DNA of 64,000 bases. Source: Candidatus Woesearchaeota archaeon. GTDB taxonomy: Archaea; Nanobdellota; Nanobdellia; Pacearchaeales; GW2011-AR1. The notes under the pieces were generated by a model. It saw nothing but the letters and a program-made list of their open reading frames with translations. It ran no database searches and was not told the DNA's origin. This document shows, piece by piece, positions 30,380 through 45,869 of this stretch (position 1 is its first letter; every line of letters starts with the position of its first letter). The stretch covers positions 51,373-115,372 of the forward strand of contig CAYXNX010000001.1 of the NCBI GenBank assembly GCA_964467035.1, given 5' to 3'. The position numbers were made by a program, and so were the translations under genes.

Positions 30380-30673
30380 ATGCGACTTTACAGAAAAGGA
30401 AAACCAGTAGATTTTGGAAGTAGTTGGTTTTCAACAATTTCAGAAGCAACAGAATTTGAAAAACCAAACGAAGAAAACATTATTTCAATAATGTGGCTAA
30501 AAAAACAACTTTTTAATAAATATTTTGAACACAATGGAATGGGATACAGGGCAAAATCTCCCAAGAATTATGCTCTTGCAAATCCTGTTATAGAATCAAT
30601 GACTATGGATAAATTTGAAGAAAGATTGCATCACCCAATAATCTCAAAATTTTATTGGGATGGAGAATATTAA
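30380..30673 (+). CDS. hypothetical protein
   Basis: 97-aa ORF. Confidence 0.3.
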   Translation: MRLYRKGKPVDFGSSWFSTISEATEFEKPNEENIISIMWLKKQLFNKYFEHNGMGYRAKSPKNYALANPVIESMTMDKFEERLHHPIISKFYWDGEY

Positions 30674-31359
30674 CCAGAAATCACTGACCCTCTAAAATTT
30701 TGACCTAAAAGCAACTTATCTAAATTATTCAAATTGTTTCCAACAATATAAGTTTTAATTTTTTCTTCTAAAATAATTTTAGCCGCATTTTGGTCTAAAA
30801 CAAAATGCTGTCCTGGGGAAAATTTAATAGAATTTGCCATTTTAAAAAAATCTTTCCAAGAAATTTCTTTTATAAATTTCGCACTTTTATACTTTTTTGG
30901 ATTTTTATCAAACAGCCCATCAACATTTGTAACATTAATAAATTCGCTTCCAAATTTTTTTGCAATCAAAGAAGCAGTTGAATCACTTGTTTGATTTGGC
31001 TTATACCCTAATGCACCGCAAAAAACAAAATTCTGTTTTTTCAAATATTTTTTAATTTCTTTCATTTTATGTGGAATTCCTTTTTCAGGGTCTAATTTAA
31101 AAAAATAACTCATAAATCTCGCATTAGTCCTTGTAACTGAAATACCTGCAAAACTCTGCAATTTATTACTTGCTTTAATCTCCCTTAATCCTTGAATATA
31201 CATTCTCGCCACCGAACCTCCCCCGCAAACCACCACAAACTTATAATTTTTAGAATGTTGTTTCAAAATTTTTTTAAACTTTTTAAGAAAACTTAAATTA
31301 ATTTTATTATCTTTAATAATCTGACTTCCCCCCAAACTTAAAACAATCACCTTTTTCAT
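30670..31359 (-). CDS. pyrH: uridylate (UMP) kinase, amino-acid kinase fold
   Basis: MKKVIVLSLGGS..VVVCGGGSVAR; 229 aa. Confidence 0.6.
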   Translation of the reverse strand: MKKVIVLSLGGSQIIKDNKINLSFLKKFKKILKQHSKNYKFVVVCGGGSVARMYIQGLREIKASNKLQSFAGISVTRTNARFMSYFFKLDPEKGIPHKMKEIKKYLKKQNFVFCGALGYKPNQTSDSTASLIAKKFGSEFINVTNVDGLFDKNPKKYKSAKFIKEISWKDFFKMANSIKFSPGQHFVLDQNAAKIILEEKIKTYIVGNNLNNLDKLLLGQNFRGSVISG

Positions 31360-31664
31360 AAATAAAAAAAGAAATTTATATATTTAAATTTACCTAACAG
31401 TAAACAACTTATCATCATCTACATCAAATACTCCCAATCTTACCCCTGCATCAATCCACCCATGAGCATAATTCAAAGCACCAAAACAATTAACATAATC
31501 TCCTTTTTCAAAAAAATGCCTTGCATCACTTAAATAATTCCCCGCCATCTCAATAATTTCCTTCGCCTCTTCTTTTTTAACAATATTTTCCTTCACAATT
31601 TCAAAAGCCCTTTCAGTAGTTTTAAAATATTTTTCAATCTTTTCTTTTGTTATTTTGGATTTCA
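31250..31664. repeat. 415-bp direct repeat copy 1 (pyrH 5' end plus intergenic plus 91-aa gene)
   Basis: near-identical to 32629..33043. Confidence 0.85.
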
Positions 31665-31665
31665 T
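31390..31665 (-). CDS. conserved small archaeal protein (91 aa), co-operonic with HEPN/MNT
   Basis: ATGA overlap with upstream HEPN gene; duplicate copy at 32768..33043. Confidence 0.45.
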   Translation of the reverse strand: MKSKITKEKIEKYFKTTERAFEIVKENIVKKEEAKEIIEMAGNYLSDARHFFEKGDYVNCFGALNYAHGWIDAGVRLGVFDVDDDKLFTVR

Positions 31666-32054
31666 AATTTCAGTTTTACAAATTTTTTCAATTTATTAAT
31701 TAACTCTTTCATCAAAAATTCATTCCTATCTAAATAATCTTTATCAATAAAAAATCCTTCATAAGATACCCTATTTCTTAAAACTCTAAGGTCATTAAAA
31801 AAATGATTATAACTCCTAAATTCCGAATATTTATCAACTAAATAGTCAAATAATTCTTTATGACTTAAAGTTTTGTAACCGTCAATCAACAAAACAGAGG
31901 TAGCTAATTCTTTTATAATTTCATAATAATCTGAAATAATTAAAGCAGACATTTTTTCCTTATTTTGAAGTTTAATTCTATCCTCAATTAAATTTATCAT
32001 TTTCAAAATACTTTTTGCTCTTTCTTTATCCGGAGTTATTTTTATCAAACTCAT
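31662..32054 (-). CDS. HEPN-domain protein (partner of MNT), R-N-x-x-x-Y variant motif
   Basis: RVLRNRVSYEG. Confidence 0.5.
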   Translation of the reverse strand: MSLIKITPDKERAKSILKMINLIEDRIKLQNKEKMSALIISDYYEIIKELATSVLLIDGYKTLSHKELFDYLVDKYSEFRSYNHFFNDLRVLRNRVSYEGFFIDKDYLDRNEFLMKELINKLKKFVKLKL

Positions 32055-32596
32055 TTTAATCTTACAAAACCTTTTAAAATAAATCCATTCAAAATATTGT
32101 TTTTCAATTCTTTATTTAATCTATTAATATCTGATTCAAATAAGATATTTAATTTTTTATTTAAAATATCCTCAAATTTTTTTATATTTAATTTCTTTGA
32201 TTTTGATTCTACAAAAATATCAACATCACTTTCATTTATGTCTTCACCTTTTGAATAACTTCCAAAAACAATAATAGAATTAGGCACACAGAAGTCATAT
32301 AAATAATCAACTAATTTAGATTCATACAAATTATGAATATTAAGAACTTTTTTCGCAAATAAAAATTCATTACTTTCTCTATTTGCAATATATCCAAAAA
32401 ATCTATCACCTTTCTTTTTTGATAAAATTTTTTGATTTTCTAAATTAATAAGATGTTTTTTAACAGAAGTCGGAGCTAAATTAATTTTTCGCGAAATTTC
32501 TTTAATAAAATGGATATTCAAAGGATCTTGAGAAAAAACACTAAATACTTTCCAAACACTTTGTTCAAATAAACATATTTGTTCCATAATAAACAT
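32051..32596 (-). CDS. minimal nucleotidyltransferase (MNT) with N-terminal wHTH
   Basis: IIVFGSYSKGEDINESDVDIFVE. Confidence 0.7.
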   Translation of the reverse strand: MFIMEQICLFEQSVWKVFSVFSQDPLNIHFIKEISRKINLAPTSVKKHLINLENQKILSKKKGDRFFGYIANRESNEFLFAKKVLNIHNLYESKLVDYLYDFCVPNSIIVFGSYSKGEDINESDVDIFVESKSKKLNIKKFEDILNKKLNILFESDINRLNKELKNNILNGFILKGFVRLK

Positions 32597-32628
32597 TTAT
32601 ATTGCTTAAAGTATATAAATGTTTCTAC

Positions 32629-32738
32629 TAGAATGTTGTTTCAAAATTTTTTTAAACTTTTTAAGAAAACTTAAATTAATTTTATTATCTTTAATAATCT
32701 GACTTCCCCCCAAACTTAAAACAATCACCTTTTTCATA
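32629..32738 (-). pseudogene. duplicated 5' fragment of pyrH (first ~36 codons)
   Basis: inside 415-bp repeat copy 2. Confidence 0.6.
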
Positions 32739-32767
32739 AATAAAAAAAGAAATTTATATATTTAAAT

Positions 32768-33043
32768 TTACCTAACAGTAAACAACTTATCATCATCTAC
32801 ATCAAATACTCCCAATCTTACCCCTGCATCAATCCACCCATGAGCATAATTCAAAGCACCAAAACAATTAACATAATCTCCTTTTTCAAAAAAATGCCTT
32901 GCATCACTTAAATAATTCCCCGCCATCTCAATAATTTCCTTCGCCTCTTCTTTTTTAACAATATTTTCCTTCACAATTTCAAAAGCCCTTTCAGTAGTTT
33001 TAAAATATTTTTCAATCTTTTCTTTTGTTATTTTGGATTTCAA
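32768..33043 (-). CDS. second copy of the 91-aa small protein (ATG replaced by TTG)
   Basis: identical protein; start codon position reads TTG. Confidence 0.4.
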   Translation of the reverse strand: MKSKITKEKIEKYFKTTERAFEIVKENIVKKEEAKEIIEMAGNYLSDARHFFEKGDYVNCFGALNYAHGWIDAGVRLGVFDVDDDKLFTVR

Positions 33044-33291
33044 TGTTTTGTATAACCTCCTTTTTTCTCATATTCTTTATGTAATTGATGGACCTCTAAA
33101 ATAATCTGTAAAATCCTTAATTCATCTCCAGCAACATTTGTATAAAAAGCTCTTGCCTCTTTAGTTAACTTAATTAAAAATAAATTACTTACACCATATT
33201 TTTGTTGAAAATATTTATAAATTGGAAGTCTCTTAGAAATTGGTTCACCTACCCTACCACTTTTCAAAAAATCAATAGTTTTAGTAATCAA
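33040..33291 (-). CDS. hypothetical small protein
   Basis: 83-aa ORF. Confidence 0.3.
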   Translation of the reverse strand: MITKTIDFLKSGRVGEPISKRLPIYKYFQQKYGVSNLFLIKLTKEARAFYTNVAGDELRILQIILEVHQLHKEYEKKGGYTKH

Positions 33292-33392
33292 AAAATAAAG
33301 ATCTTGATTAGTTTTATTTCCCTTGCTTAATTCAGATTCAATATTTAACTTAACCCTAAATAACTCCTTACTTAATTAAGTAATTTTGTCCT

Positions 33393-33659
33393 TCATACTT
33401 TAATAGCCTCAGAAATCAGCTTATTTAATTTTTTATTGTTTGGAAAAATCCAGATAATTTTATCCTCTTCAAACATAATCTTATTTGATTTTTCAAGATA
33501 ATTTAATATCAACTTAAATGTTTGATACTGCATTTGTTTAGGCAATGCCTTCCATAATTGCATCCGAGTAGGATAATCTCCAAAATCTTGTATTAACTTT
33601 TCAACTACTAAAATTGAATCCAACTTAGGATAATGTAGAATATTTATTTTGTTTTTCAT
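33393..33659 (-). CDS. hypothetical small protein
   Basis: 88-aa ORF. Confidence 0.3.
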   Translation of the reverse strand: MKNKINILHYPKLDSILVVEKLIQDFGDYPTRMQLWKALPKQMQYQTFKLILNYLEKSNKIMFEEDKIIWIFPNNKKLNKLISEAIKV

Positions 33660-33699
33660 TGTATAAACTTATACAATACATTATTTAAACTTTTCGATT

Positions 33700-33819
33700 A
33701 CAAAATCTCAATAATTTCCTTCGCCCCTTCTTCTTTAACAATATTTTTCTTCACAATTCTCAAGATCTTTTCAGTAAGATTATAATATTTCTCTAATTTT
33801 TTGTTATTTTATCTTTCAT
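33700..33819 (-). pseudogene. degenerate third copy of the 91-aa gene 5' end (in-frame stop after 8 codons)
   Basis: similar to 31550..31665; ATGA overlap with HEPN gene. Confidence 0.35.
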
Positions 33820-34268
33820 ATTTGTTTATTAATAATCTTAATTAGTTTAGTATAAATTTGTTTTGTAAATTTAATAACTTTTTTAGCATATTCTACATCA
33901 ATTTTAGTTCCGTAATACAACATTCCATTTCTAAAAAATCTAATCTGATTCAAAAAACCAATTTCCTTATCTGTAAATTCTAAATTTTTTAAATAAGAAA
34001 CTTCGGCTTCATGAGCTTTAAAACCAGAAGCATTAAATCCATGAATAAACATTTCAGCCCTAATCAATTCCATTAAAATATCATAACATTTTTTAACATA
34101 ATCGTTAGCATTTAGCTCATTAATTCCTATTTTTTCAATTAATATAATCAAATAATTATAATTTTGTTGAGATTCATCTATTAAAAATTTTGCTCTTGAT
34201 TTATCTGAAAATTGTTTTTTAACAATTCCCAATTTAAGAAATTCCTCAAATTTTTTAACAGGTTTCAT
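33816..34268 (-). CDS. HEPN-domain protein
   Basis: FFRNGMLYYG. Confidence 0.5.
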   Translation of the reverse strand: MKPVKKFEEFLKLGIVKKQFSDKSRAKFLIDESQQNYNYLIILIEKIGINELNANDYVKKCYDILMELIRAEMFIHGFNASGFKAHEAEVSYLKNLEFTDKEIGFLNQIRFFRNGMLYYGTKIDVEYAKKVIKFTKQIYTKLIKIINKQI

Positions 34269-34813
34269 AATTCAATTCCTCCAACAAGAACAATACCATT
34301 AAGTATATTTTCCTTTAAATTTTTATTCATTTCTTTAAATGAATCATAAAAATTAAGATTAATTTCTTTACTCAAAATTTTTTCAAAATTAGACAAATCT
34401 ATCTTTTTTTTCTTTCTTCCAATAATTGCTATATCAATATCAGAATTAAATATATCATCTCCTCTTGAGTAACTTCCAAAAAGAATAATTGTTCCACCTG
34501 CAAATTCTTTTTCCAAAAAATCAACAACATTTAAAAGATATAACTGTTCTAGATTATTGGCTCTTTTTAATTGTAAAATTTTATGATTATCTCTATTTAA
34601 TTCAATGCTCCAACGTTTAGATTCTTTATCTTGGTTAATAGTTATAAACTCCTTTTTTTCTAATAAAGGAAGAGCTTTCATAACTGCTGGAGCACTTACT
34701 TTTAAAAACTTAGAAAGAGATCTTTGATTAAAGCTTTGACCTGCCCGTACAAATAAAAAATCCAAAATATCTCTTTGCAAATTAGTTAATTTATGTCTAT
34801 TAATATTTACCAT
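34265..34813 (-). CDS. MNT nucleotidyltransferase with wHTH
   Basis: IILFGSYSRGDDIFNSDIDIAII. Confidence 0.7.
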   Translation of the reverse strand: MVNINRHKLTNLQRDILDFLFVRAGQSFNQRSLSKFLKVSAPAVMKALPLLEKKEFITINQDKESKRWSIELNRDNHKILQLKRANNLEQLYLLNVVDFLEKEFAGGTIILFGSYSRGDDIFNSDIDIAIIGRKKKKIDLSNFEKILSKEINLNFYDSFKEMNKNLKENILNGIVLVGGIEL

Positions 34814-35015
34814 AGTTAATATATATTAACCAAAGTTTATAAGTTTTTCTAATTTAACGGCTTTGTTGAAAAAGTTAAGATAATTTTTGATTTTACTAAA
34901 AGTTTAGGAAACTCCTGTAGAATATAGGGTGGGTTTTTCGACGAAGTCGAAACTTGTAGTGGGAAAATGTAAAATCAAAAACAAATAAAAATTTAGATTT
35001 TCAACAAAGCCTAAT

Positions 35016-35261
35016 TTAACCGTAAACTTTCTTTCTAGTATCTATATCAAAAACAATCCACACTTCCTCTTTCAACTCTAATAAAACTCTATACCCTCCA
35101 ATTCTTAATCTAAAAGAACTTTTATAACCTTGTAATTTTTTTATATCAATTCTTTTACCATCTAATAAATCCTTTAATTTTACATTAATTAAATTTCTTA
35201 TATTAAAAGGTAATTTAAAATATTTCTTTTTTGCTTTTGAAGAGAACTCAATCTTTTTCAT
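35016..35261 (-). CDS. RelE/ParE-family toxin
   Basis: FRLRIGGYRVLLELKEEVWIVFDIDTRKKVYG. Confidence 0.6.
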   Translation of the reverse strand: MKKIEFSSKAKKKYFKLPFNIRNLINVKLKDLLDGKRIDIKKLQGYKSSFRLRIGGYRVLLELKEEVWIVFDIDTRKKVYG

Positions 35262-35481
35262 TTTCTTTCAAAATTTCTTCAAAGGAAATTGTCTCTCCTT
35301 TTTTAAATTCCTCTAAAGCTTCCTTTCTCAAACTCTCACTTTCTTTAGATAAAGGAAGAAAAGGCTCTATAAAATGCCATATAACTTCATCATAAGAATC
35401 CAGCAAAAGCTGTTCTTTAAGTTTAGTCATTGCCAAATGTGTTTCATCTTTTATTCTAAGTTGCATACAATATGAATACAT
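35248..35481 (-). CDS. cognate antitoxin (same family as 5267..5509)
   Basis: C-terminal EEFKKGETISFEEILKE. Confidence 0.5.
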   Translation of the reverse strand: MYSYCMQLRIKDETHLAMTKLKEQLLLDSYDEVIWHFIEPFLPLSKESESLRKEALEEFKKGETISFEEILKENEKD

Positions 35482-35901
35482 TTTGTATTTATAAATTTTT
35501 CTAAACTCAAAACTCTTTTTCTTAATTTCATAACTAACTTGAAGGAGAAAAATTTATGTGGCAGTTTTTCTATATCAACAAGCAGTAGAAAAAGCATTAA
35601 AGGTTTATTCTTATTTTGACACAAGGAAGTAGTTCCTCAACCTTATTCTTTAATTTATCTTGCCACCAATACTTCAATCCCTGAAAAATATTTTTCTTTT
35701 TTAAGAAAATTAACTCTTTCATCAAAAATTCATCCTACCCAAATAATCTTTATCAACAAAAAATCCTTTACAAGATATTCTATTTCTCAAACATTTAACT
35801 TTCTTCAGTATTTAAAACTCAAAACAGAAAGTTTTGATTTGCTGAATTTTTTATCAAGAAAATTTAGAATATTAAATAAAAATTTGAAAAAAACTTTATA
35901 A

Positions 35902-37314
35902 TTACCTATAATCTCTTCTTCTATTTCTTTTTTTCAAAGCCAAAGCACCAGAGCCACCTACCAAAGCAGCTAAACCTGTTAATCCCCATCCCCCACTTAA
36001 AGGGATATTTGGAAAATCCATTTCATCAAGAGGGTCTGTTCCATACTGAACCTCTTCCCCATCATCAACACCATCCAAATCTGTATCAAAATGAAAGGGG
36101 TCTGTTCCATACTGATTAACCTCTTCCCCATCAGTTAAACCATCTCCGTCTGTATCAGGGTTAGAAGAATCTGTCCCTAACTCAAATTCTTCTAAATCAG
36201 TTAAACCATCATTATCTTGGTCTCTTGTAGGACTTGCAGGGCGAAAATTGGTAACATAAACCTCTCCACCACTATTATTTTCAACTTGTCTTTCCTTAAT
36301 TGCCCCTTCATCAATCAAAACTTCTGTAGAATATTTTGATTTTCCAGCAACAGGAGCTTCCCAATAATTCCCTTTAAAATATTGGTCTGGATTTTCCCCA
36401 GATTTTTCATCAGATTCTACCTGAACAACAGTTCTCCAATTAATAAAAGAATTATTCCCCTCTTCAATACCTGCATTAACTCCAGTTCCTTTAATCTCAA
36501 AAGCAACATTTTCCCCATTACCATAAAAAATATTATCCCTTACTTCTACATTTGAAACAGTTTCTTTAGAACTTTTCCCAGAATCTCCATAAACACGAGC
36601 AGCAGGACTTTTATCTCCTTCACTAAATTCAAAAATATTATTTCTTAACTCCAAATTACTATCAATCCCATCATAATTCAAAGGAGCTTTTAAAATACAA
36701 TTCTCAATTCTTCCATCAGGTCTTCCTTCTGAAGTTGTCCCAAGGTAACTAATAACATTACCCCTTCCAGGCAATACCAAATCATAAAATTCAACATCAT
36801 CAAGCCCATCTATCCCTGTCCCAGTTATTAATTCTGATAAATGTTCTCCATTTTCATAAGTTCCGATAAATCTTGTAGGTCTTGAAACAATAGGGCTATT
36901 AGTTCCCGGCTTAAATTCCCCCTCACCCAATTTTACTACAAGATGATTTGGATTATAATTATCTCCAGTTTCCTTAGTAAAATTTTCAAACAATTCCCGA
37001 GCAAGATTGCCTTCTTCCCCATGCACCAAATAATTTTCTTCACCCATTCCTTCTTCAACAGGTGTTTTATAAGAAAAATCATTAATCATATACTGAGAAT
37101 CATCAATCTCTCCCCCATTTACAGGAGTAAAAGGAGCATATTCACTATTTGGGATATCATTTATATTTCTTACTTCAACATATTGCTGAGGATTATCAAA
37201 ACTATATTCCTGTCCTTGAGCACCTAAAGAACTTAATCCAATAACTCCAGTTAACAAAGCTCCTTTAAATCCAGTTCTTAGCTTATTTGTTAAATTTTGC
37301 TTTTTATTCTGCAT
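35902..37314 (-). CDS. surface protein with parallel beta-helix repeats, Asp-rich calcium-binding repeats and PGF-CTERM-like tail
   Basis: DQDNDGLTD/DTDGDGLTDGEE repeats; C-term GLTGLAALVGGSGALALKKRNRRR; GC higher than neighbours. Confidence 0.5.
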   Translation of the reverse strand: MQNKKQNLTNKLRTGFKGALLTGVIGLSSLGAQGQEYSFDNPQQYVEVRNINDIPNSEYAPFTPVNGGEIDDSQYMINDFSYKTPVEEGMGEENYLVHGEEGNLARELFENFTKETGDNYNPNHLVVKLGEGEFKPGTNSPIVSRPTRFIGTYENGEHLSELITGTGIDGLDDVEFYDLVLPGRGNVISYLGTTSEGRPDGRIENCILKAPLNYDGIDSNLELRNNIFEFSEGDKSPAARVYGDSGKSSKETVSNVEVRDNIFYGNGENVAFEIKGTGVNAGIEEGNNSFINWRTVVQVESDEKSGENPDQYFKGNYWEAPVAGKSKYSTEVLIDEGAIKERQVENNSGGEVYVTNFRPASPTRDQDNDGLTDLEEFELGTDSSNPDTDGDGLTDGEEVNQYGTDPFHFDTDLDGVDDGEEVQYGTDPLDEMDFPNIPLSGGWGLTGLAALVGGSGALALKKRNRRRDYR

Positions 37315-37391
37315 AATCCCCTAACAAACAAATACTTTATAAATTTTTCTATTTCAATTTATAATAATTAAAACAAAATTTCACCCAATTT

Positions 37392-39599: not shown

Positions 39600-40065
39600 T
39601 TAACATTACCTCAATTTCATCAACAATCTTCTTAGATTTATCTAACAAATTATTTAAAATTTCCTTATTAACTTCAGTTTTAATACCGTATTGAAATTCC
39701 TCTCTCAAAGTTTTTGCATCTTTTTCTATCATTTGACCAGTAGTTCTAATAAATGAAACAACTGATTTATCTAATTTTATCTCTCCAATTTCAATAAAAT
39801 GTTCAATTGCATTAATACTACACTCATAATTTTTGGATTCAAACCCTTTACTAAACAATATAATTAAAAAAGAATGATAAACTGCATAATACAATTGAGC
39901 AACTACCCAATCTTCAAATCCTCCCTCAATATTATAATTAGCCGCCTTAATATTATGTTTCGCTTTTTTAATATGTGCACTAGATAATTCTAAGTTTGGA
40001 ACTATCCTCTTCATTCTCTTCTCACTTTTCAAACACCAATTAAATTTTGATTCAATATCTTGCAT
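39592..40065 (-). CDS. HEPN-domain protein (PF05168-like)
   Basis: AQLYYAVYHSFLIILFSKG..SKNYECSINAIEHF. Confidence 0.45.
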   Translation of the reverse strand: MQDIESKFNWCLKSEKRMKRIVPNLELSSAHIKKAKHNIKAANYNIEGGFEDWVVAQLYYAVYHSFLIILFSKGFESKNYECSINAIEHFIEIGEIKLDKSVVSFIRTTGQMIEKDAKTLREEFQYGIKTEVNKEILNNLLDKSKKIVDEIEVMLNE

Positions 40066-40630
40066 TTTTTATCACCTCTAAAAATACTGATTCCCCTTTT
40101 ATCACAATTCCTTTTCTAATAATATCCAAAATAACTTCATTTTTAATTTTTACCTTATTGATTAAATCTTGTTCTTTCAAAATTAAAGGGACAATAGGCT
40201 TACTCCTAGATCTAGAAATACTTAAACAAAAATCATTAACTTGTTTAATTTTATTTGTCATAAATAAAACATCAACATCATTAAAACTTTTTTTATCTAA
40301 AATAGAACCAAACAAAATAATCAAATTTGCATTTTCAAATTCTTTAAGTTCTTCAAAATAAATTTTGGCAAATCCTTTTAAATTATTTCTTTCTTCAATA
40401 AGTAAAAATTCACAAATTTTAATTGTTTGATCTTCTTCAAAATTCAACCAATATTTTTTAACATTCCCAATATTTTCCGATAAAACAAATTTTTTCATTT
40501 CAAGATTTTTAAGAATTTTAAACGCACTTCCAACACTAATATTAAGTTTTCTAGAAATCTGATTAATACTATTATTTTCAAAATTTTTTAATAAATACAA
40601 GATTATTTTTTTGGTATTTCTTGAAATCAT
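40052..40630 (-). CDS. MNT nucleotidyltransferase with wHTH
   Basis: ILFGSILDKKSFNDVDVLFM. Confidence 0.6.
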   Translation of the reverse strand: MISRNTKKIILYLLKNFENNSINQISRKLNISVGSAFKILKNLEMKKFVLSENIGNVKKYWLNFEEDQTIKICEFLLIEERNNLKGFAKIYFEELKEFENANLIILFGSILDKKSFNDVDVLFMTNKIKQVNDFCLSISRSRSKPIVPLILKEQDLINKVKIKNEVILDIIRKGIVIKGESVFLEVIKNARY

Positions 40631-40676
40631 TTTCCTTTAAAGTGAATAATCATTCACAAATAATGAATGTTTATAA

Positions 40677-40849
40677 ATCTTTCCAAATCCCACGCACTCA
40701 CCCCCACCTCCCACACCAAACCCCAAATTACCAAAACCACAATTCCTAAACTCGTCCAAATTTACTATTCATTTCACCCCTCCAACCACCCACGCCCTCG
40801 CCGCTCCCAAAACAACTATTCCAATTAAAAATAAATTTTTACTTCGCAT
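40677..40849. repeat. two tandem degenerate R elements (orphan start + signal-peptide-coding fragments)
   Basis: reverse complement reads MNSKFGRV* and MRSKNLFLIGIVVLGAARAWVVGG. Confidence 0.6.
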
Positions 40850-41459
40850 TTTCAAAATCCTCTTTTTTTATTTTAATCCATCTTGAACAAACTTTTAGCA
40901 AATGATTAGATAAAGAAAAAGGACTACCTCTTTTTCTATCAAAATAAGTATAAAGAATAATTTCAGTACCTCTTTTATTTAAATCTTCTAAAATTGGACA
41001 AAAATCAGTATCAGAAGAAATCAAAACAATTTTTTTAATAAGAGGATAATCTTCTTTAATATGACTTAAATCTAAAGCCAACAAAATATCAACCCCTTTT
41101 TGTTTATACTCAAATCCATCATTTACTTTTAATCTTTGGACTCTTCCCTCTCTAAAAATAATTCCCTCTTTAATTAAAGAACTTCGAAAGGAATCATACT
41201 TAACTTTTCTTCTAATTTGTTCTCTAGTAGGATTATTTGACTGGAATGGCGGAGCAGTATATAAAAAAATTTTTTCAAAATCAAAATTTTCCCCCAAACA
41301 GATATTTTCTACAAAATTTTTAATTTTAAAAGGAATATAATACCCTTCACCCAAATGAATGTTTAATTTTGATAAAAACCCCAAATCTATAAAAAATAAA
41401 ACTTTATTATTCATTTTTAAAAAAGCCTCCAAAATTTTTTTCAGAAAAATAAAAAACAT
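40839..41459 (-). CDS. NYN/LabA-like (PIN-fold) nuclease domain protein
   Basis: IVLISSDTDFCPILEDLNKRGTEIILY. Confidence 0.45.
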   Translation of the reverse strand: MFFIFLKKILEAFLKMNNKVLFFIDLGFLSKLNIHLGEGYYIPFKIKNFVENICLGENFDFEKIFLYTAPPFQSNNPTREQIRRKVKYDSFRSSLIKEGIIFREGRVQRLKVNDGFEYKQKGVDILLALDLSHIKEDYPLIKKIVLISSDTDFCPILEDLNKRGTEIILYTYFDRKRGSPFSLSNHLLKVCSRWIKIKKEDFENAK

Positions 41460-41551
41460 CTAGTGACCTAAAAAGATCACTAGGGAACATTTCACTAACA
41501 AAAGAATGATCCAATTTATAAACTTTTCTATTAGTTTGGATTGTTGCACGA

Positions 41552-41806
41552 TTAGGTAACAATTTTAAATATTCTATATCTAGCATTATAGTCTTTTAAC
41601 AATTTTACTAGGTTTTTAGGTTTATTTTTCATTAAGATAACTCCTTTTGCTAATTTCTCAAAAGTGTTTTGTTTGAGAACACCTTCTCTAAAATAGGAAT
41701 AAGTCCCAAAATTAGAATAATCCTTATATCCATAGAGTTTTCTATTAAATTCAAGTCTTTTCTTTGGAGCTATAGAATCAAACCCATAAATTAACACGTA
41801 TTTCAT
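41552..41806 (-). CDS. hypothetical small protein (faint Cas2/VapD-like pattern)
   Basis: 84-aa ORF MKYVLIYGFDSIAPKKRLEFNRKLYGY. Confidence 0.25.
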   Translation of the reverse strand: MKYVLIYGFDSIAPKKRLEFNRKLYGYKDYSNFGTYSYFREGVLKQNTFEKLAKGVILMKNKPKNLVKLLKDYNARYRIFKIVT

Positions 41807-41859
41807 ACTGGTAACTATGAACAGTAATATTTAAATATTACTGTATACTAATACAGTAT

Positions 41860-42732
41860 ATGAATACAGTAAAAAGAGATTGGAAAACTTATAATGAAAA
41901 ACTAATAAAAAGAGGAGAGTTCTACTTAAATCCAAAATTCCTTGATACATGGTTAGATGAAATAAAGAAGATGAATGCTGGTAAGATAGGAGAACCTTAT
42001 CTTTATCCTGATTCTATGATAAAATTTCTAGCTGTTTTGCATGCAAAAAATTTTGATTATAGAGCTCTTGAAGGTATTATGAGGGTTTTTTCAGGAATGA
42101 ATTTTAATTTTCCAGTAATAAGTTATACTCAAATTTGTCGTCGAGTTAATAATCTTGACCTTTCATTTGATATTAAGGAAAAAGATTTAGTTGTTGCAAT
42201 TGATGGTTCTGGAGAAAAAGTCAGTAATAGAGGAGAATGGATAAGACAAAAGTGGAAGGTGAGAAGAGGTTGGATAAAAGTAGTGATAATGGGAACCCCT
42301 GAAGGAAAGATAGTTGATATAAGAGTTGGAAATGAAAAGCTTGATGAAAGAAAAGCTGCTAGAGGTATGTTAAGAGATAATAATTCTAAAATCAGTAAGG
42401 CAATTATGGATGGCCTGCATGATTGCAGAGATACATTTAATGTTTGTGAAAAAAGAAAAATAGAGCCAGTGATAAAAATTAGAAAGAATGCGAGAACAAG
42501 ATCAAAAGGATCTCCAAAAAGAAGAGAAGCTGTTGTTGAATATCAAAGATTAGGACATAATGATTGGGTTAGAAAAAAAGGATATGGAATGAGGTGGCCT
42601 GCTTCAGAGGGTATTTTTTCTGCTGATAAAAGAATATTTGGGGAGAGTGTTAGAGCAACTAAAAAAAGAAACATGTATCAGGAAGTCAAACTAAAATTTT
42701 GGGTATACAATAAACTTCAGAAAATAGGGTAA
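41860..42732 (+). CDS. putative DDE-type transposase (IS5/ISH-like)
   Basis: VVAIDGSGEKV candidate first Asp; 290 aa, basic; only plus-strand gene in minus-strand array. Confidence 0.35.
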   Translation: MNTVKRDWKTYNEKLIKRGEFYLNPKFLDTWLDEIKKMNAGKIGEPYLYPDSMIKFLAVLHAKNFDYRALEGIMRVFSGMNFNFPVISYTQICRRVNNLDLSFDIKEKDLVVAIDGSGEKVSNRGEWIRQKWKVRRGWIKVVIMGTPEGKIVDIRVGNEKLDERKAARGMLRDNNSKISKAIMDGLHDCRDTFNVCEKRKIEPVIKIRKNARTRSKGSPKRREAVVEYQRLGHNDWVRKKGYGMRWPASEGIFSADKRIFGESVRATKKRNMYQEVKLKFWVYNKLQKIG

Positions 42733-42808
42733 AAAAAGGTTAGATAGCGAGAGCCTTGTTTAAATTAAGAATCATGCAACAGAGCATATTAGTTAAAATC
42801 AAAGTCTT

Positions 42809-42901
42809 ATTCATTAAAAAATACCTCCTTGAACCATCCCTCCCAAACCCCAAATTACCAAAACCACAGTTCCAATTAAAAATAAATTTTACTATTTCCC
42901 A
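42809..42901. repeat. R element (orphan)
   Basis: reverse complement ATGGGAAATAGTAAAATTTATTTTTAATTGG.. overlaps RelE stop. Confidence 0.55.
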
Positions 42902-43155
42902 TAAACTTTACCTCTTTTATCCATTTTAAAAATAATAATTTTTTTATCTTTATAACTTATTCTATATAAAACCCTATAATCTCCAATTCTAATCCTAAAA
43001 CAATTATGCTTTCCAATTATGGATTTAGAATCAGAAGGAACAGAAGTTTTATTAAAAACTTGATTTAACTTACCCAAAATTCTTTTAGAAATATTTTTAT
43101 CTTGTTTTTCCAAAAATTTTATAGGTTGAGAATCATAAACTAAAGAAAAATTCAT
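42892..43155 (-). CDS. RelE/ParE-family toxin
   Basis: FRIRIGDYRVLYRISYKDKKIIIFKMDKRGKVYGK. Confidence 0.6.
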   Translation of the reverse strand: MNFSLVYDSQPIKFLEKQDKNISKRILGKLNQVFNKTSVPSDSKSIIGKHNCFRIRIGDYRVLYRISYKDKKIIIFKMDKRGKVYGK

Positions 43156-43355
43156 AAGCTTAATTCTTTTTCAATATCTTCATTAGAAATCAACAAACCT
43201 TTTTTTTCGTTTTCATAACTTTCTTCAAGCAAATTTTCTTCTTCAGTTGTTAAAAAAGAATCATCCAAAGTTTCCTGAATATTTAAAACAAGATTTTTTA
43301 AATTATTCAAATCATTATGTATTGTTTCCAAGGTTATATTTTCCATATTAAACAA
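43152..43355 (-). CDS. cognate antitoxin
   Basis: C-terminal ENEKKGLLISNEDIEKELSL. Confidence 0.5.
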   Translation of the reverse strand: MFNMENITLETIHNDLNNLKNLVLNIQETLDDSFLTTEEENLLEESYENEKKGLLISNEDIEKELSL

Positions 43356-43357
43356 AA

Positions 43358-43543
43358 TTAATGAAGACTTAAAAAACTTTCCCTCCTTTCAGTTTTATAT
43401 CTTTTAGATTCTCGTGCAAATCCCCCAACCACCGCCCACACCAAACCCCTCATTACCCTTTCTAAATCTCCCACCTCCCACGCCAAACCCCCAATTACCA
43501 AAACTCCAGTTCCAATTAAAAATAAATTTTTACTATTCACCAT
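43358..43543 (-). pseudogene. orphan R element with 61-codon ORF (signal-peptide fragment, duplicated GLAWxVG motif)
   Basis: MVNSKNLFLIGTGVLVIGGLAWEVGDLERVMRGLVWAVVGGFAR. Confidence 0.45.
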
Positions 43544-44019
43544 CTTTTTTCAAACCCCTCTCTAAAATCCTGAATATTTTTATTAGTTAATTTTGAAACA
43601 AAATCCAAAATATAATCAAAAAAAGATTCTGCGCTTTTTATAGTTTCTCCCACTTCATCTTTAGAAATTTCAAAATCTACATAATACTGTTTATCAACCC
43701 TTTCATACTTTGCTTTCCTAATCTCAGAATTATCTAAATTAAACAAATCTTTCAATAAAATTATTGAAGCCATATGATTCTCAGACTTTATTCCAACTTT
43801 AAAAAACAAAGAAATTAAAATATTATACATAGAATAATAAGCAAGAACAACAGATTCTTCCAATTTATTTTCTCTAAAAAGAATTTTTGCAGAACTAAGA
43901 TTACTCTCAGATTTAAGAATATAAGAATCTTTCAAATTTTCACTAGGATCAACAAGTTCTAATTTTCCTTGTTTTTTTAATTTAGTCAAAAAATCCATTT
44001 TTAGCGTAAAATTCTTCAA
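43537..44019 (-). CDS. HEPN-domain protein (PF05168-like)
   Basis: VVLAYYSMYNILISLFFKVGIKSENHMASIILL. Confidence 0.45.
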   Translation of the reverse strand: MKNFTLKMDFLTKLKKQGKLELVDPSENLKDSYILKSESNLSSAKILFRENKLEESVVLAYYSMYNILISLFFKVGIKSENHMASIILLKDLFNLDNSEIRKAKYERVDKQYYVDFEISKDEVGETIKSAESFFDYILDFVSKLTNKNIQDFREGFEKRW

Positions 44020-44540
44020 ATCCTTTTAAGATAACATGATTCTTTTCAATTTCTTTTATCAAAATATGCTTTGAGTCATATTTACCCATTTTCAAACTCA
44101 ATCTTGAATCAATTTTCAATAAATCTTCTTTTAATTCTTTACTTGAATTTTCAATATAAATATCAATGTCACTATTTTTTTTTGCAATTTCCTTAGAATA
44201 AGAACCAAATAAAATAGCTAATTTAATCCGTTTATCTAATTGAATTCTTTCAATTAATCTTCTTAAAGAAGGATAATTTTTAATAACACGATTCAATTTG
44301 TAAACTTCAGACATTAATATATAATTTCTCGCTTCTATACTTTTTTTAAGAAAAAAAACTTTATTCCTCCCTTTTTCTTCAAAATCTACAACATTCTCTT
44401 TCATTAATTCATTCATTCTCCTTACCACAACCATATGGTTAGTTTTTAATAACTTAGCAATTTCCCTAATATGATTTTTTTCTTTGATTAATTGAATAAT
44501 TACTTCCAATTTAAAATCTTTATGTTCCATATGTAACACT
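43982..44540 (-). CDS. MNT nucleotidyltransferase with wHTH
   Basis: AILFGSYSKEIAKKNSDIDIYIE; track start is GTG, ATG 9 nt later. Confidence 0.6.
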
Positions 44541-44555
44541 TATGTTCCATTATTT

Positions 44556-44655
44556 ATAAATCTTTCCAAATCCCACGCACCCACCCCCACCGCCCACGCC
44601 AAACCCCCAATTACAAAACAACTATTCCAATTAAAAATAAATTTTTATTATTCAT
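44556..44655. repeat. R element (orphan; stop after 14 codons)
   Basis: begins tttataaatctttccaaatcccacgcac as at 40668; reverse complement MNNKNLFLIGIVVL*. Confidence 0.6.
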
Positions 44656-45065
44656 TTTAATTTATCTTCAATCAATTTAGACAATTTTTTAATTACCAAT
44701 ACAATTTCTTTTTCATAATTTTGAAGAAAAGTTTCATTCACTTTTTTCCCATAATATACAATTCCATTTCTTGATTTTCTTAAAGTATCTATAAGTAATA
44801 ATTGATTGTCATTTAATAAATCATAATTTGTAGAGAAGTATTCTAACAATTTTTTATGACTTAGAGTCTTAAATCCATCTATGTACATAATACTTGTCAA
44901 AAAACCTAGAACAATTTCATAATATTCTTCAACAATTTTATATGGTTTATCTCTAGGCAAAATTTTAATTATATCCAATCTCTCTTTAGAAATTTCGAAC
45001 AATTCTCTAGACCTAATTAAATCTTTCTCTATTTTAAAAATTTCTTCATCCATAAATACCTCCAT
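44652..45065 (-). CDS. HEPN-domain protein
   Basis: RKSRNGIVYYGKKV. Confidence 0.5.
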   Translation of the reverse strand: MEVFMDEEIFKIEKDLIRSRELFEISKERLDIIKILPRDKPYKIVEEYYEIVLGFLTSIMYIDGFKTLSHKKLLEYFSTNYDLLNDNQLLLIDTLRKSRNGIVYYGKKVNETFLQNYEKEIVLVIKKLSKLIEDKLK

Positions 45066-45573
45066 ACAAAGTCAATCCATTTAAAATTTTATTTTTTAAA
45101 GGTTTATTCAATTTATTTAAGTTATTTACATTAATAAAATTTATCTCTCTACCTAAATTATCTTCAAATTTAGAAACATCTAACTTTTTTTTAATATTGG
45201 ATAAAATAAAAATATCAATGTCACTTAACTCTACATCATTGCCTGTTGAATAAGAACCAAAAAGTATTATTGCCTTAGGATTTAAGTTAAATTTAATGGA
45301 TTCAACCAAATCATAGAGAGAATAAAGATTATACAATTTTTTGTAAAAAGTAAATCTATCATTATCTCTATGCGCAACATAACCATCAAAAGGTTTAGAT
45401 TTTTTAATTTTTATCAAACCTTCTTTCAATAAGTCTTGTATATTTTTTCTAACAGAAGTATGAGCCAAATTTATTTTTTTACTAATCTCTCTAATAAAAT
45501 GAATATTTGTTGGTTCTTTAAAAAAAACTTCTAAAACTTTTAGGTAGCTACTTTTTTGTATCATTATAAACAT
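45046..45573 (-). CDS. MNT nucleotidyltransferase with wHTH
   Basis: IILFGSYSTGNDVELSDIDIFIL. Confidence 0.7.
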   Translation of the reverse strand: MFIMIQKSSYLKVLEVFFKEPTNIHFIREISKKINLAHTSVRKNIQDLLKEGLIKIKKSKPFDGYVAHRDNDRFTFYKKLYNLYSLYDLVESIKFNLNPKAIILFGSYSTGNDVELSDIDIFILSNIKKKLDVSKFEDNLGREINFINVNNLNKLNKPLKNKILNGLTLYGGIYG

Positions 45574-45689
45574 AAATATACTAATTAGTATATAAAACTA
45601 TCGGTCAAACTCTGCTTTAACTAATTTAAAAAAATCATCATCTGCAAAAATCAAAGTATCATTAATTAAAAAATACCTCCTTAAAAAAA

Positions 45690-45860
45690 TCCCCCACACC
45701 AAAACCCCCATTACCCTTTCCAAATTCCCAACCACCCCCACACCAAATCCCTCATTACCCTTTCCAAATTCCCAACCACCCCCACACCAAATCCCTCATT
45801 ACCCTTTCCAAATCCCCACCGCCCACGCCAAACCCCCCATTACCAAAACCAAAATCCTAA
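45690..45860. repeat. tandem array (3 units, about 48 nt period) of the G/W-rich core of the R element
   Basis: cccaaccacccccacaccaaatccctcattaccctttccaaat repeated. Confidence 0.65.
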
Positions 45861-45869
45861 AATAATTAT

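Follow-up and report, generated by a model that had tools for sequence, protein, structure and literature searches.

In the MntA/HepT pair, MntA acts by AMPylation. Among mobile elements, repeats of 25–52 nt that derive from a target gene's 3' end are typical of integrase att cores. Integrons and clusters of attC sites lacking an integrase (CALINs) have been reported from Nanoarchaeota, where toxin-antitoxin (TA) cassettes are common (PMC9668308). In the 64-kb stretch analysed here (the window), which comes from a Pacearchaeota-like DPANN archaeon, we identified ten small TA-type cassettes stacked beside two resident genes. The gene content proposed in the first-pass annotation was borne out by Pfam, structure and homology. 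Encoded on the minus strand are five wHTH-MNT/HEPN pairs, two RelE/ParE pairs and one NYN nuclease, and on the opposite strand an IS5 transposase. Profiles built from the MNT and HEPN proteins matched only inside the array when the window was searched. However, what had been described as an array is interrupted at 35902-39599 by two large surface-protein genes and consists of two sub-arrays. The features of sub-array A are as follows.

30670-31359, minus strand: pyrH (UMP kinase), resident anchor downstream of sub-array A (Pfam AA_kinase, 101 bits)
31390-31665, minus strand: DUF357 copy A, the intact resident gene (Pfam DUF357, 88 bits; PDB relatives 2pmr and 2oo2)
31662-32054, minus strand: HEPN-like 1 (R-N-R-x2-Y, no His; AlphaFold model and Foldseek)
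32051-32596, minus strand: MNT1, wHTH and minimal nucleotidyltransferase (Pfam NTP_transf_2/Polbeta; PADLOC PDC-M05A, E 6e-12)
32629-33042, minus strand: exact duplicate of 31251-31664 (100% identity over 414 nt)
33040-33659, minus strand: two-gene module of o88 (33393-33659) and o83 (33040-33291) (homologous pairs, tblastn, frame analysis)
33705-33823, minus strand: degenerate DUF357 5' fragment with stop codons (81–83% to copies A and B)
33816-34268 and 34265-34813, minus strand: HEPN-like 2 (R-N-x3-Y-Y-G) and MNT2 (Pfam nucleotidyltransferase and MarR for MNT2)
35016-35261, minus strand: RelE/ParE-like 1, with an overlapping upstream antitoxin-sized ORF at 35248-35481 (homology to RelE2)
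35708-35791, minus strand: relic of a HEPN-like-1-type gene, 3' fragment (89% to 31698-31782)

DUF357-pyrH-Rpp30 synteny is kept in about 20 relatives, and pyrH is 67% identical to that of Ca. Pacearchaeota MAGs. The start codon of DUF357 copy A overlaps the HEPN1 stop codon (ATGA). The 414-nt duplicate, placed after o83, contains, besides the spacer, all of DUF357 (copy B, in which the start ATG has become TTG) and 109 nt from the pyrH 5' end; the degenerate DUF357 fragment (118 nt) begins at the HEPN2 stop (ATGA). Sub-array A has the same layout as sub-array B, built with an unrelated sequence, the 5' end of DUF357(-pyrH). RelE/ParE-like 1 scored 19.6 bits against Pfam ParE_toxin, below the cutoff of 23, but aligned with RelE2 at 47% identity over 45 aa (E 2e-10). 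The o83 product is RelE-like in appearance, with an in-frame TAA at codon 7.

Sub-array B and its boundary genes comprise the following features.

35902-39599, minus strand: two resident surface-protein genes (470 aa with TSP3 repeats; 735 aa)
39520-39604, minus strand: R1, start codon and TM helix (MNSKFWMSFGIVVLVIGGLAWAVG) of the 735-aa gene, overlapping the HEPN3 stop
39592-40065 and 40052-40630, minus strand: HEPN3 (PF05168) and MNT3 (Pfam)
40668-40777, minus strand: R2b, ending in TATA-like ATTTATAAA ahead of MNT3
40780-40849, minus strand: R2a, directly following the NYN stop; truncated, without promoter
40839-41459, minus strand: NYN nuclease (Pfam NYN, 38 bits; weak PADLOC NYN match)
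41552-41806, minus strand: 84-aa ORF of no assigned family, preceding NYN
41860-42732, plus strand: IS5-family DDE transposase (Pfam DDE_Tnp_1_5 and DDE_Tnp_1)
42843-42902, minus strand: R3, truncated copy behind the RelE2 stop; without promoter
42892-43155, minus strand: RelE/ParE 2, with an antitoxin-sized ORF at 43152-43355 (Pfam ParE_toxin, 36.6 bits, above cutoff)
43424-43543, minus strand: R4, leader and 2 units behind the HEPN4 stop, reading as a 61-aa ORF
43537-44019 and 43982-44539, minus strand: HEPN4 (PF05168) and MNT4 (Pfam)
44553-44658, minus strand: R5, frameshifted copy ending in TATA-like ATTTATAAA ahead of MNT4
44652-45065 and 45046-45573, minus strand: HEPN-like 5 (HEPN-like alignment) and MNT5 (Pfam)
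45691-45869, minus strand: R6, starting at the 950-aa gene stop codon; 3.6 tandem 44-nt G-rich units
45870-48722, minus strand: 950-aa surface-protein gene, upstream boundary of sub-array B

R1 forms the beginning of the 735-aa gene. The R element consists of the start codon and membrane-helix coding segment of this gene followed by G-rich units of 44 nt, a length that is not a multiple of 3; the G-richness is strong and on one strand. Recurring R repeats had been reported between the cassettes. They are confined to 39.5–45.9 kb of the window, with none expected by chance, whereas the left sub-array carries DUF357/pyrH fragments instead. The R copies are about 90% conserved and the cassettes between them about 30% identical. 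The start points of the copies agree to within about 6 nt, and each copy directly abuts the stop codon of the upstream cassette (the 950-aa gene in the case of R6), with the exception of R2b, which lies behind R2a; a T5 run in the leader falls just after each stop codon. At their 3' ends, the copies vary, extending over roughly 0.6, 1, 1.3, 2 or 4 units. The region's only canonical G4 motif lies in R5 (44572-44595). The 61-aa peptide of R4 had no relative besides itself among 5.8 billion proteins, and R itself had none in any collection searched. The IS5-family transposase shares 33% identity with an IS5 transposase from Sulfolobus and sits within a signal-peptide-like gene remnant downstream of R3; we looked for clear terminal inverted repeats of this element and found none.

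All five MNTs combine a wHTH with an NTP_transf_2/Polbeta domain by Pfam, and each overlaps a downstream partner gene of ~130–160 aa. Pfam HEPN PF05168 was matched by two of the five partners, HEPN3 (34.9 bits) and HEPN4 (36.3 bits); the other three had no match in Pfam or NCBIfam. HEPN-like 1, the sole Pfam-less partner that was modelled, adopts a confident 5-helix bundle (pLDDT 94) in its AlphaFold model, and its top PDB matches by Foldseek are all HEPN proteins (2hsb, 6m6w, 7ae8 and 3o10). It also matches PADLOC PDC-M05B (E 0.004) and has 353 homologues at 62–72% identity. HEPN-like 2 aligns with the HEPN-like family, in which the R, N, Y and G are invariant. The R-N-x3-Y-Y-G variant lacking His that was noted at first pass is real: in a MAFFT alignment of all five, which pairs sequences 11–33% identical, Arg and the Tyr five residues on are invariant, and the PF05168-type partners too read R-x4-Y, not R-x4-H.

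Within the array, the MNTs are 28–47% and the HEPNs 22–33% identical. For the four MNTs searched, closer relatives occur outside it: MNT1 at 53%, to an MNT upstream of DUF357 in the relative L010, MNT3 at 65% (686 family homologues, 58–65% identity), MNT4 at 56–57% and MNT5 at 52%. The MNT5 relative is encoded with a protein 55% identical to HEPN-like 5, in a pair adjoining DUF357 in L028. Recent duplication in place, which had been named as the finding that would overturn the array interpretation, is therefore not what the data show. Judged by identity, which is higher to outside proteins than within the array, the cassettes appear to have been acquired separately.

In related genomes, cassettes are bracketed by direct repeats of 22–89 nt, usually the end of a neighbouring resident gene, and one such bracketed array probably sits at the orthologous locus. 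In L010, a 22-nt exact repeat that includes the DUF357 start codon flanks the MNT-HEPN pair lying upstream of that gene. The L033 array, from the same MAG, lies downstream of the same helicase type and a homologous surface-protein gene of 844 aa; this gene and our 950-aa gene (30% identity over 514 aa; 53% at the C-terminus) are each downstream of a Helicase_C_2 helicase. The terminal 52 nt of the 844-aa gene reappear behind MNT3-HEPN3 (96%) and a further copy of its end (25 nt, 80%) behind the next cassette, and the helicase gene's last 25 nt reappear behind a MazEF pair. In L006/L007, an MNT1-type pair is bracketed by an 89-nt repeat, which in L006 resembles a promoter-bearing intergenic element rather than a gene end. 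Two MNT-HEPN contexts, in L003 and in L037-L039, showed no flanking repeat. The DUF357-pyrH-Rpp30 neighbourhood is a lineage-wide hotspot, with different slots around it filled by an antitoxin-RelE pair (between DUF357 and pyrH in L010), o88-o83 homologues (93 + 117 aa pairs in the pyrH-Rpp30 interval of L023 and L026) and MNT5/HEPN5-type cassettes (L028). Also, L036 shares 1465 nt with L033 at 100% identity (844-aa gene end, MNT3-HEPN3, repeat copy and 110 nt more, ending at the contig end), yet this segment is joined to a DUF357 gene only 90% identical to that of L010, a contig from the MAG that also includes L035, itself 99% identical to L033. This arrangement fits a recent exchange between strains.

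Based on these observations, we consider the chances about even that the two adjacent arrays, with their five MNT-HEPN pairs, two or three RelE/ParE pairs and NYN nuclease, grew by homology-anchored accretion at this hotspot. Each array would have grown at a resident-gene boundary, the 5' end of DUF357-pyrH for A and the junction of the 950-aa and 735-aa genes for B. DNA from related strains would bring a cassette together with the start of the conserved gene and enter by one crossover in that gene and one illegitimate join; equivalent routes would be a small circle integrating by the Campbell mechanism or alleles exchanging unequally, and neither a dedicated integrase nor a hairpin site would be required. 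Behind every added cassette there would then be a copy of the first 55–414 nt of the downstream resident gene, which itself would persist intact at the array's far end, with older, shortened copies lying between cassettes (H-X-H-X-H-gene). The 1378-bp unit (MNT1 promoter-MNT1-HEPN1-DUF357-pyrH'109) is the exact product expected of such a crossover and join. Accretion is further supported by the identity of R with the 735-aa gene start, by copies abutting stop codons with variable 3' ends, and by the same direct-repeat signature in L010, L033 and L006/L007. Expression may read through from the cassettes into the anchor genes.

The sharp 5' edge of R (about 6 nt) would equally come from a site-specific event, and R and, separately, the DUF357 start could be att-like sites for a site-specific recombinase whose gene lies elsewhere in the genome or on a helper element. 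The cassettes themselves would be integrase-less satellites accreting in tandem, as cis-mobilisable elements do at bacterial gene ends; the direct repeats bracketing them, of which those from target-gene 3' ends in L033 span 25–52 nt, agree with this. We regard it as unlikely, since at least four unrelated sequences (R, the DUF357 start, the 844-aa gene end and the helicase end), with repeats spread over 22 to 414 nt, would have to be recognised, R has no dyad symmetry, and no integrase was found in the cassettes or the scanned ORFs of the window. Two unrelated repeat sequences of 55 to 414 nt in one region likewise favour homology over one site-specific enzyme. Other observations weigh against accretion: a donor, an empty site and a circular junction were all unseen, the 22–25-nt repeats in relatives are short for RadA-type recombination, some relatives' contexts have no repeat or, in L006, one that is not gene-end-like, and R has no relative in the collections searched. 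The perfect 414-nt repeat also makes the assembly graph ambiguous between an integrated copy and a free 1378-bp circle or tandem. Part of the region could thus be an assembly product, if the chromosome lacked MNT1-HEPN1 and the unit existed as a free circle or tandem multimer, or if two strain alleles had been co-assembled: the repeat would exceed typical short reads, and the Logan contig L002 reaches 30 nt into either copy and then ends, which implies a graph with two in-edges and two out-edges. However, the junctions of the window are backed by independent Logan contigs from run SRR11308339 with 100% matches to it (L001, 45738-44618, with an exact copy of the HEPN-like 5 and MNT5 pair; L002, 32658-31635). 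The novel junction of pyrH'109 with the MNT1 promoter is present in the reads, the diverged repeats (R copies, degenerate DUF357 fragment, HEPN1 relic) cannot be artefacts, and L032, compared by gene order, agrees with the window from MNT4 via R4, R3 and the IS as far as NYN, leaving this a decidedly improbable account.

The terminator-like T5 run, the G-rich units, tandemly amplified in R6 and out of frame by length, and the TATA-like ATTTATAAA of R2b and R5 at promoter distance from the next MNT would also suit a lineage-specific intergenic module, spread or homogenised by gene conversion between operons, with cassettes arriving by unrelated means and the 735-aa gene taking one R copy as its signal anchor. 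The L006 repeat is likewise promoter-bearing and intergenic. We think this rather improbable: sub-array A, whose repeat is plainly a housekeeping gene 5' end with 109 nt of pyrH, would be left unexplained, no further R copy occurs in the 64 kb, and R3 and R2a are truncated and promoterless. An origin of the MNT-HEPN pairs by old tandem duplication in place and divergence could draw on the closeness of MNT1 and MNT5 (47% aa identity over 177 aa; 66% nt over 487 nt), but four of five MNTs, HEPN-like 1 and HEPN-like 5 are closer to proteins of other genomes, the partners belong to two different HEPN families, and the repeats are far better conserved than the cassettes they separate; the chance of it is very small. 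We accord almost no likelihood to an archaeal integron or CALIN, a reading already contradicted by structural tests, even though such elements with TA cassettes are reported from Nanoarchaeota (PMC9668308). The parallel drawn earlier holds for co-oriented, mutually unrelated small cassettes, each trailed by a ~90%-conserved repeat, but not for the defining integron features. As noted at first pass, no integrase is visible: a Pfam scan of ORFs across the window returned no tyrosine recombinase, including IntI. R is not a recombination hairpin, since as ssDNA it forms none on either strand (z -1.4 to +0.9); RYYYAAC...GTTRRRY (R''/R' core) pairs are absent between cassettes, Rfam gave no match, and some cassettes carry their own TATA-like promoters. 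A single recombinase on a dedicated R site also fails for the whole region, because the sub-array A "repeat" is the DUF357-pyrH 5' end.

Since the MNT1 and MNT3 families are unusually conserved in housekeeping contexts, the cassettes need not all be selfish TA modules. The MNT-HEPN pairs themselves are of the PDC-M05/type VII TA kind, and by analogy with AMPylating MntA/HepT, the MNT would neutralise its HEPN partner, with the wHTH domain probably serving in autoregulation.

The array at 31390–45573 is a real, dense island of TA-type cassettes with an unusual and recurrent architecture, and our analysis points to accretion at resident genes as its origin. The first-pass annotation had treated it as one array; the gene content was as described, but two large surface-protein genes make two sub-arrays of it. 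The main features are as follows.

31.4–35.8 kb: sub-array A, punctuated by copies of the DUF357 gene
33040–33659: o88/o83, a two-gene module
35016–35261: RelE1 toxin gene
35902–39599: two large surface-protein genes (470 and 735 aa)
39.6–45.9 kb: sub-array B, punctuated by the repeat R
40839–41459: NYN nuclease gene
42892–43155: RelE2 toxin gene

The five annotated MNT+HEPN pairs were recovered: five genes (MNT1–MNT5) encode an N-terminal winged helix and an MNT domain, and each overlaps a downstream gene of 130–160 aa. The nucleotidyltransferase domain was matched in all five by the Pfam models NTP_transf_2 and/or Polbeta (MNT3 scores 24.2 bits against Polbeta, under the cutoff of 26.9). The GS...DxD motif is present, with F-G-S and both D-x-D aspartates invariant across the MNT alignment. 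MNT1 and MNT3 match the PADLOC profile PDC-M05A (E 6e-12 and 9e-8, respectively), and the PDC-M05B profile matches HEPN-like 1, the partner of MNT1. Profiles built from the array MNT and HEPN proteins had no other match in the 64 kb save one winged-helix-only protein, a 115-aa ORF (24784–25131) that was rejected as an MNT, its match to the MNT profile running through the wHTH domain only.

A HEPN-fold partner lies directly downstream of the MNT. PF05168 was matched in two of the five partners (HEPN3 and HEPN4); Pfam and NCBIfam searches returned no match for HEPN-like 1, 2 and 5, which form one family with R, N, Y and G invariant in an aligned "LRxLRNxxxY.G" motif. The AlphaFold model of HEPN-like 1 (pLDDT 94) contains five helices, and its best Foldseek matches in the PDB, with weak E-values of at least 0.04, are all HEPN proteins: AF_0298 (2hsb, TM 0.68, probability 1.00), the sacsin HEPN domain (TM 0.70) and the HepT toxins 6m6w, 7ae8 and 5yep. 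A PDB sequence search with HEPN-like 1 gave no meaningful match, and hhalign of the HEPN-like family against HEPN3 reached no significance. HEPN-like 1 is the modelled member, and HEPN-like 2 and 5 probably share its fold, as judged by their alignment with the HEPN-like family. HEPN-like 1 (31662–32054) and its homologues (P0002–P0120) make up a HEPN-fold family of ~132 aa without a Pfam model, in which H65, R90, R93, N94, Y98 and G100 are invariant. Identity among members is 62–72% across Nanoarchaeota and Woesearchaeota, on hundreds of contigs, which is unusual conservation for a "toxin"; in the contexts examined they follow an MNT of 174–182 aa.

Absence of the catalytic histidine, annotated for one HEPN variant, extends to all five partners: the alignment reads R-x4-Y and not R-x4-H, PF05168 members included, and the catalytic R-x4-6-H RNase motif is absent from every one. 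The HEPN-like family does have an invariant histidine elsewhere, H65 in "SHK". In MntA/HepT systems the MNT neutralises the HEPN protein by AMPylating a tyrosine near the active site; by analogy, the array MNTs would neutralise their partners by Tyr AMPylation, and the winged helix would autoregulate. The pairs are of the MNT–HEPN kind (type VII TA, and the PADLOC candidate system PDC-M05; PMC12988326), and their function is inferred. Two of the array's MNT–HEPN families are highly conserved across Nanoarchaeota in housekeeping contexts, and the same sort of conservation was described for a DPANN MNT–HEPN cluster (Makarova, Wolf & Koonin 2019; PMC6393860). Because the catalytic histidine is missing throughout and two families are conserved in such contexts, classical RNase toxicity is uncertain; given R-x4-Y in all five proteins and this wide conservation, one may ask if these "toxins" act as RNases.

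Both annotated RelE toxins have an overlapping small upstream ORF. RelE2 scores 36.6 bits against a Pfam cutoff of 23 and is overlapped by a 67-aa ORF; RelE1 falls under the cutoff (19.6 bits) and is 47% identical to RelE2 over 45 aa. The NYN nuclease matches PF01936 (NYN, LabA-like domain) at 38 bits against a cutoff of 24.2. Upstream of it, at 41407–41806 on the minus strand, two overlapping ORFs (84 and 59 aa) match no family and could be its partner. The oppositely oriented transposase belongs to the IS5 family (DDE_Tnp_1 domains by Pfam; 33% identity to a Sulfolobus IS5 transposase), and no convincing terminal inverted repeats were found for this element. An NCBIfam search of the array's small ORFs returned no match. 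Between RelE1 and MNT2, a ~147-nt element (34866–35012) flanked by inverted repeats of 14–15 nt (GGCTTTGTTGAAAA ... TTTTCAACAAAGCC) folds better than its shuffles (z −2.95), has no Rfam match and appears MITE-like or regulatory-like.

Recent in-situ duplication, the origin that would have argued against the annotated array, is excluded. The MNTs are 28–47% identical to one another and the HEPN partners 22–33%, and most cassettes have closer relatives elsewhere in searches covering MNT1, MNT3, MNT4 and MNT5, HEPN-like 1 and HEPN-like 5.

Identity of array proteins to relatives elsewhere
MNT1: best 53% (contig L010)
HEPN-like 1: 62–72% (353 proteins)
MNT3: 58–65% (686 proteins)
MNT4: 56–57%
MNT5 / HEPN-like 5: 52% / 55% (contig L028)

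The repeat thought to recur between the cassettes is present as R but is confined to sub-array B. On the coding (minus) strand R consists of "ATGAATAGTAAAAATTTATTTTTAATTGGAATAGTTGTTTT" followed by at least one 44-nt G-rich unit, GGTAAT..GGGTTTGGYGTGGG.GGTGG..GATTTGGAAAG. R1, at 39.6 kb, is where the 735-aa gene truly begins; this copy codes for the sole membrane helix of the protein, MNSKFWMSFGIVVLVIGGLAWAVG, and overlaps the HEPN3 stop. Six more copies lie upstream, five of which start within a few nt of the preceding stop codon (R2a after NYN, R3 after RelE2, R4 after HEPN4, R5 after HEPN5 and R6 after the 950-aa surface-protein gene), with R2b directly after R2a. The 5′ edges agree to ~6 nt and the 3′ extents range from ~55 to ~180 nt, R6 holding ~4 units. 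Copies are 76–96% identical to one another; the cassettes between them are unrelated. With frameshifts in R3 and R5 and a truncation in R2a, such copies are relics and not genes. The R DNA pattern, exact or degenerate, had no match in GTDB genomes, JGI metagenomes or IMG/VR, and the R-encoded peptide matched itself alone among 5.8 billion proteins.

A tandem repeat with a G-rich unit of 44 nt (3.6 copies, 91% matches) occupies 45691–45844 in this genome of 29% G+C. Its period is not divisible by 3, and gain or loss of units where the 735-aa gene starts could alter that gene's reading frame. A canonical three-tetrad G-quadruplex motif occurs in R5 only (44572–44595), the other copies giving two-tetrad predictions only, and a G-quadruplex role for R is kept as speculation. 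The G-rich 44-nt units, with their partial G-quadruplex potential, might make the surface-gene junction recombination-prone. R3 and R6 are also both followed by a segment of the form "AAGGAGGTATTTTTTAAT..ATGA..CTTTGATTTT" (42760–42842 and 45600–45690), ~80% identical over 65–69 nt with a 39-nt core at 90%, which looks like the RBS and start of a secreted-protein gene. The IS5 element interrupts the one on the R3 side; the one on the R6 side is degenerate.

Integrons and CALINs are known from archaea, Nanoarchaeota among them, and TA cassettes are frequent in them (Ghaly et al, 2022; PMC9668308). The likeness to an integron proposed on first reading holds for the layout of co-oriented, TA-rich cassettes each with a conserved repeat, but integrase, attC fold and core sites were all not found. 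As annotated, no integron integrase is visible, with no Phage_integrase-type match among the Pfam-scanned ORFs of the 64-kb window. R folded as single-stranded DNA on both strands gave no attC-type hairpin (55–140-nt imperfect palindrome; z −1.43 to +0.93), and its G-rich core showed essentially no pairing; given its G-versus-C strand asymmetry, R is not an imperfect palindrome and has no dyad symmetry. R''/R' cores (RYYYAAC, GTTRRRY) were absent from the cassette boundaries, the only two pairs in 31–46 kb lying inside the MNT5 coding sequence, and an Rfam scan of 29–48 kb at E≤1 returned no match. By its defining features, the array is not an integron.

Sub-array A has the same layout with a different repeat sequence. 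DUF357 copy A begins at the HEPN1 stop (ATGA overlap), and a perfect 414-nt duplicate after o83 takes in DUF357 in full, the spacer and pyrH as far as nt 109. A fragment of the DUF357 5′ end, 118 nt long and decayed (81–83% identical, with stop codons), starts at the HEPN2 stop, and farther upstream is what remains of a HEPN1-type 3′ end (85 nt). The 1378-bp spacing identifies the newest unit as MNT1 promoter–MNT1–HEPN1–DUF357–pyrH' 1–109; the new junction between pyrH' 109 and the MNT1 promoter is also found in an independent assembly. A supposed fourth DUF357 fragment after o88 (33395) was rejected, being the start-codon region of o83 itself followed by an in-frame stop. The o88–o83 module recurs in two relatives (L023 10553–11191; L026 5494–6132) as a conserved pair of 93 and 117 aa with no family assigned; the second protein carries a RelE-like C-terminal pattern, and o83 of the window has an in-frame stop at codon 7.

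Two Logan contigs from run SRR11308339 (L001, L002) match parts of the array at 100% identity, and from MNT4 to NYN the gene order of a further contig (L032) follows that of the array. Exact-protein look-ups of DUF357, pyrH and NYN found none on record. The DUF357–pyrH–Rpp30–PheRS backbone is conserved in ~20 related contigs, and the slots around it vary:

L010: MNT–HEPN upstream of DUF357; AT–RelE between DUF357 and pyrH
L023, L026: o88–o83 pair between pyrH and Rpp30
L028: MNT5/HEPN5-type pair, opposite strand, after DUF357

The MNT–HEPN pair of L010 is bracketed by an exact 22-nt direct repeat containing the DUF357 start codon. L033, 99% identical to L035 (which belongs to the same MAG as L010), carries a helicase of the Helicase_C_2 type, a MazEF pair, a gene of 844 aa encoding a homologue of the 950-aa surface protein, and then an MNT3–HEPN3 / NTase / HEPN–MNT / RelE array. 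The last 52 nt of its 844-aa gene recur after HEPN3 at 96% identity and the gene end again after the next cassette (25 nt at 80%), and MazEF is followed by a copy of the final 25 nt of the helicase gene. An MNT1-type pair of a more distantly related Nanoarchaeote (L006/L007) is bracketed by an 89-nt repeat. No flanking repeat was found in two MNT–HEPN contexts (L003; L037–L039).

L036 (3131–4595) and L033 (5718–7182), from two metagenome samples and with different flanks, share a 1465-nt block at 100% identity that runs from the 844-aa gene end through cassette and repeat copy to the contig end. In L036 the block adjoins a DUF357 gene that shares only 90% identity with its L010 counterpart, and comparison of these sequences suggests recent exchange. 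The block there follows DUF357 (2458–2748) and a 5′-truncated surface-protein gene fragment, and the two contigs do not have the same number of copies of a tandem spacer of 79 nt (3 versus 2).

The recurrent pattern is H–X–H, in which H is a resident gene terminus or its promoter region, 22–414 nt long and of several unrelated sequences. We rank first, at about even probability, the homology-anchored accretion of cassettes at a lineage-wide hotspot. One homologous crossover in a conserved gene and one illegitimate join would yield H–X–H exactly and would leave an intact resident gene at one end. Equivalent routes would be the integration of a small circle by a Campbell-type event, or an unequal exchange in which the alleles carry different cassettes. 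The sharp 5′ edge of R is the main reason to consider instead a site-specific recombinase acting in trans, which we think unlikely. Of the features of integrase-driven tandem accretion, direct repeats are present, but no cognate integrase was found in the cassettes or the 64-kb window, and the repeats are of several unrelated sequences. Very unlikely, and a partial alternative, is that R serves as an intergenic module with a terminator or promoter. The perfect 414-nt repeat leaves room for the newest unit being a free circle or a tandem in part of the population; this we likewise consider very unlikely, and if true it would itself fit the circle model.

Beyond accretion at the hotspot, we tentatively propose, as a doubtful but possible extension, an integrase-free cassette system in Pacearchaeota and their relatives. 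Small TA or defence cassettes would pass from strain to strain with a conserved-gene terminus as portable homology arm, loop out as circles (e.g., the 1378-bp MNT1–HEPN1–DUF357–pyrH'), re-enter by host recombination and stack into arrays resembling integrons. The genomes of DPANN archaea are tiny and encode few recognised enzymes of mobile elements, but their accessory genes turn over; if conserved-gene ends act as homology arms, this would be a simple, enzyme-independent way for defence and TA genes to spread in these lineages.

The window (~29% G+C), part of a 149-kb contig, places the array among archaeal housekeeping genes: pyrH, an SSB-like OB-fold protein, eIF2-gamma and OapB. The pyrH product shares 67% identity with its counterparts in two Candidatus Pacearchaeota MAGs, from which the source is taken to be a Pacearchaeota-like DPANN chromosome. 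Another ORF has no Pfam match of its own; its homologue in relatives is the Rpp30-like gene next after pyrH. The OapB (origin-associated protein) homologue lies at 53704–54087 (minus), and a replication origin may be near the array. A second defence island, of type I R-M, occupies 9971–19329 (minus) beside tRNA-Asp (19799–19871):

9971–11431, minus: HsdM
11434–12591: Shedu SduA-like PD-(D/E)XK nuclease, inserted between hsdM and hsdS
12593–13717, minus: HsdS
15948–16304: DUF2283 protein
16579–19329, minus: HsdR

The island also holds a 396-aa ORF with no assigned function. Outside the array, a degraded TA pair at 5014–5509 (minus) consists of a DUF7557-type antitoxin (80 aa) and a 57-aa C-terminal ParE/RelE toxin remnant, and a C-type lectin domain protein (Lectin_C, 62 bits) is encoded in this archaeal genome at 23568–24749 (plus).

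Integrative (ICE) and cis-mobilisable (CIME) elements accrete in tandem at gene ends. The array resembles them in its head-to-tail stacking, in direct repeats that are partial target-gene ends and in an intact target on one side; unlike them, its cassettes are small (0.5–1.4 kb) and lack an integrase, its repeat lengths vary widely and its targets are several and unrelated. Homology-facilitated illegitimate recombination, described in naturally transformable bacteria, likewise uses a homologous anchor and an illegitimate join to put foreign DNA beside a conserved gene, and such a combination would account for the seamless 414-nt duplication. Here, however, the host is an archaeon, and the event would have been repeated at the same two anchors to build an array.

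Like type VII HepT/MntA and PDC-M05 systems, the pairs have a nucleotidyltransferase gene overlapping a downstream HEPN-fold gene, with matches to both PDC-M05 profiles and structural matches to HepT and other HEPN toxins. They differ in the N-terminal winged helix of the MNT, in R-x4-Y replacing the catalytic R-x4-6-H in all five partners, and in the unusual conservation of two families in Nanoarchaeota housekeeping contexts. With archaeal TA and defence islands (PMC6393860) the array shares MNT, HEPN, RelE and nuclease genes and an IS beside variable surface-protein genes, with a type I R-M and Shedu-like island 12 kb away. Its components are of known kinds; what is new is the regular punctuation by copies of resident-gene termini, recurring in relatives, which we did not find described in the literature cited here. 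Finally, sedentary chromosomal integrons and CALINs (PMC9668308) share the small, co-oriented, TA-rich cassettes with a conserved repeat after each, and within-genome repeats more alike than the cassettes. In the array, by contrast, IntI was not found, the repeat is neither an imperfect palindrome nor equipped with R''/R' cores but is the coding 5′ end of a resident gene, the second sub-array uses another repeat, and several cassettes have promoter-like TATA boxes of their own. If the accretion reading is correct, a repeat-punctuated cassette array is not always an integron.
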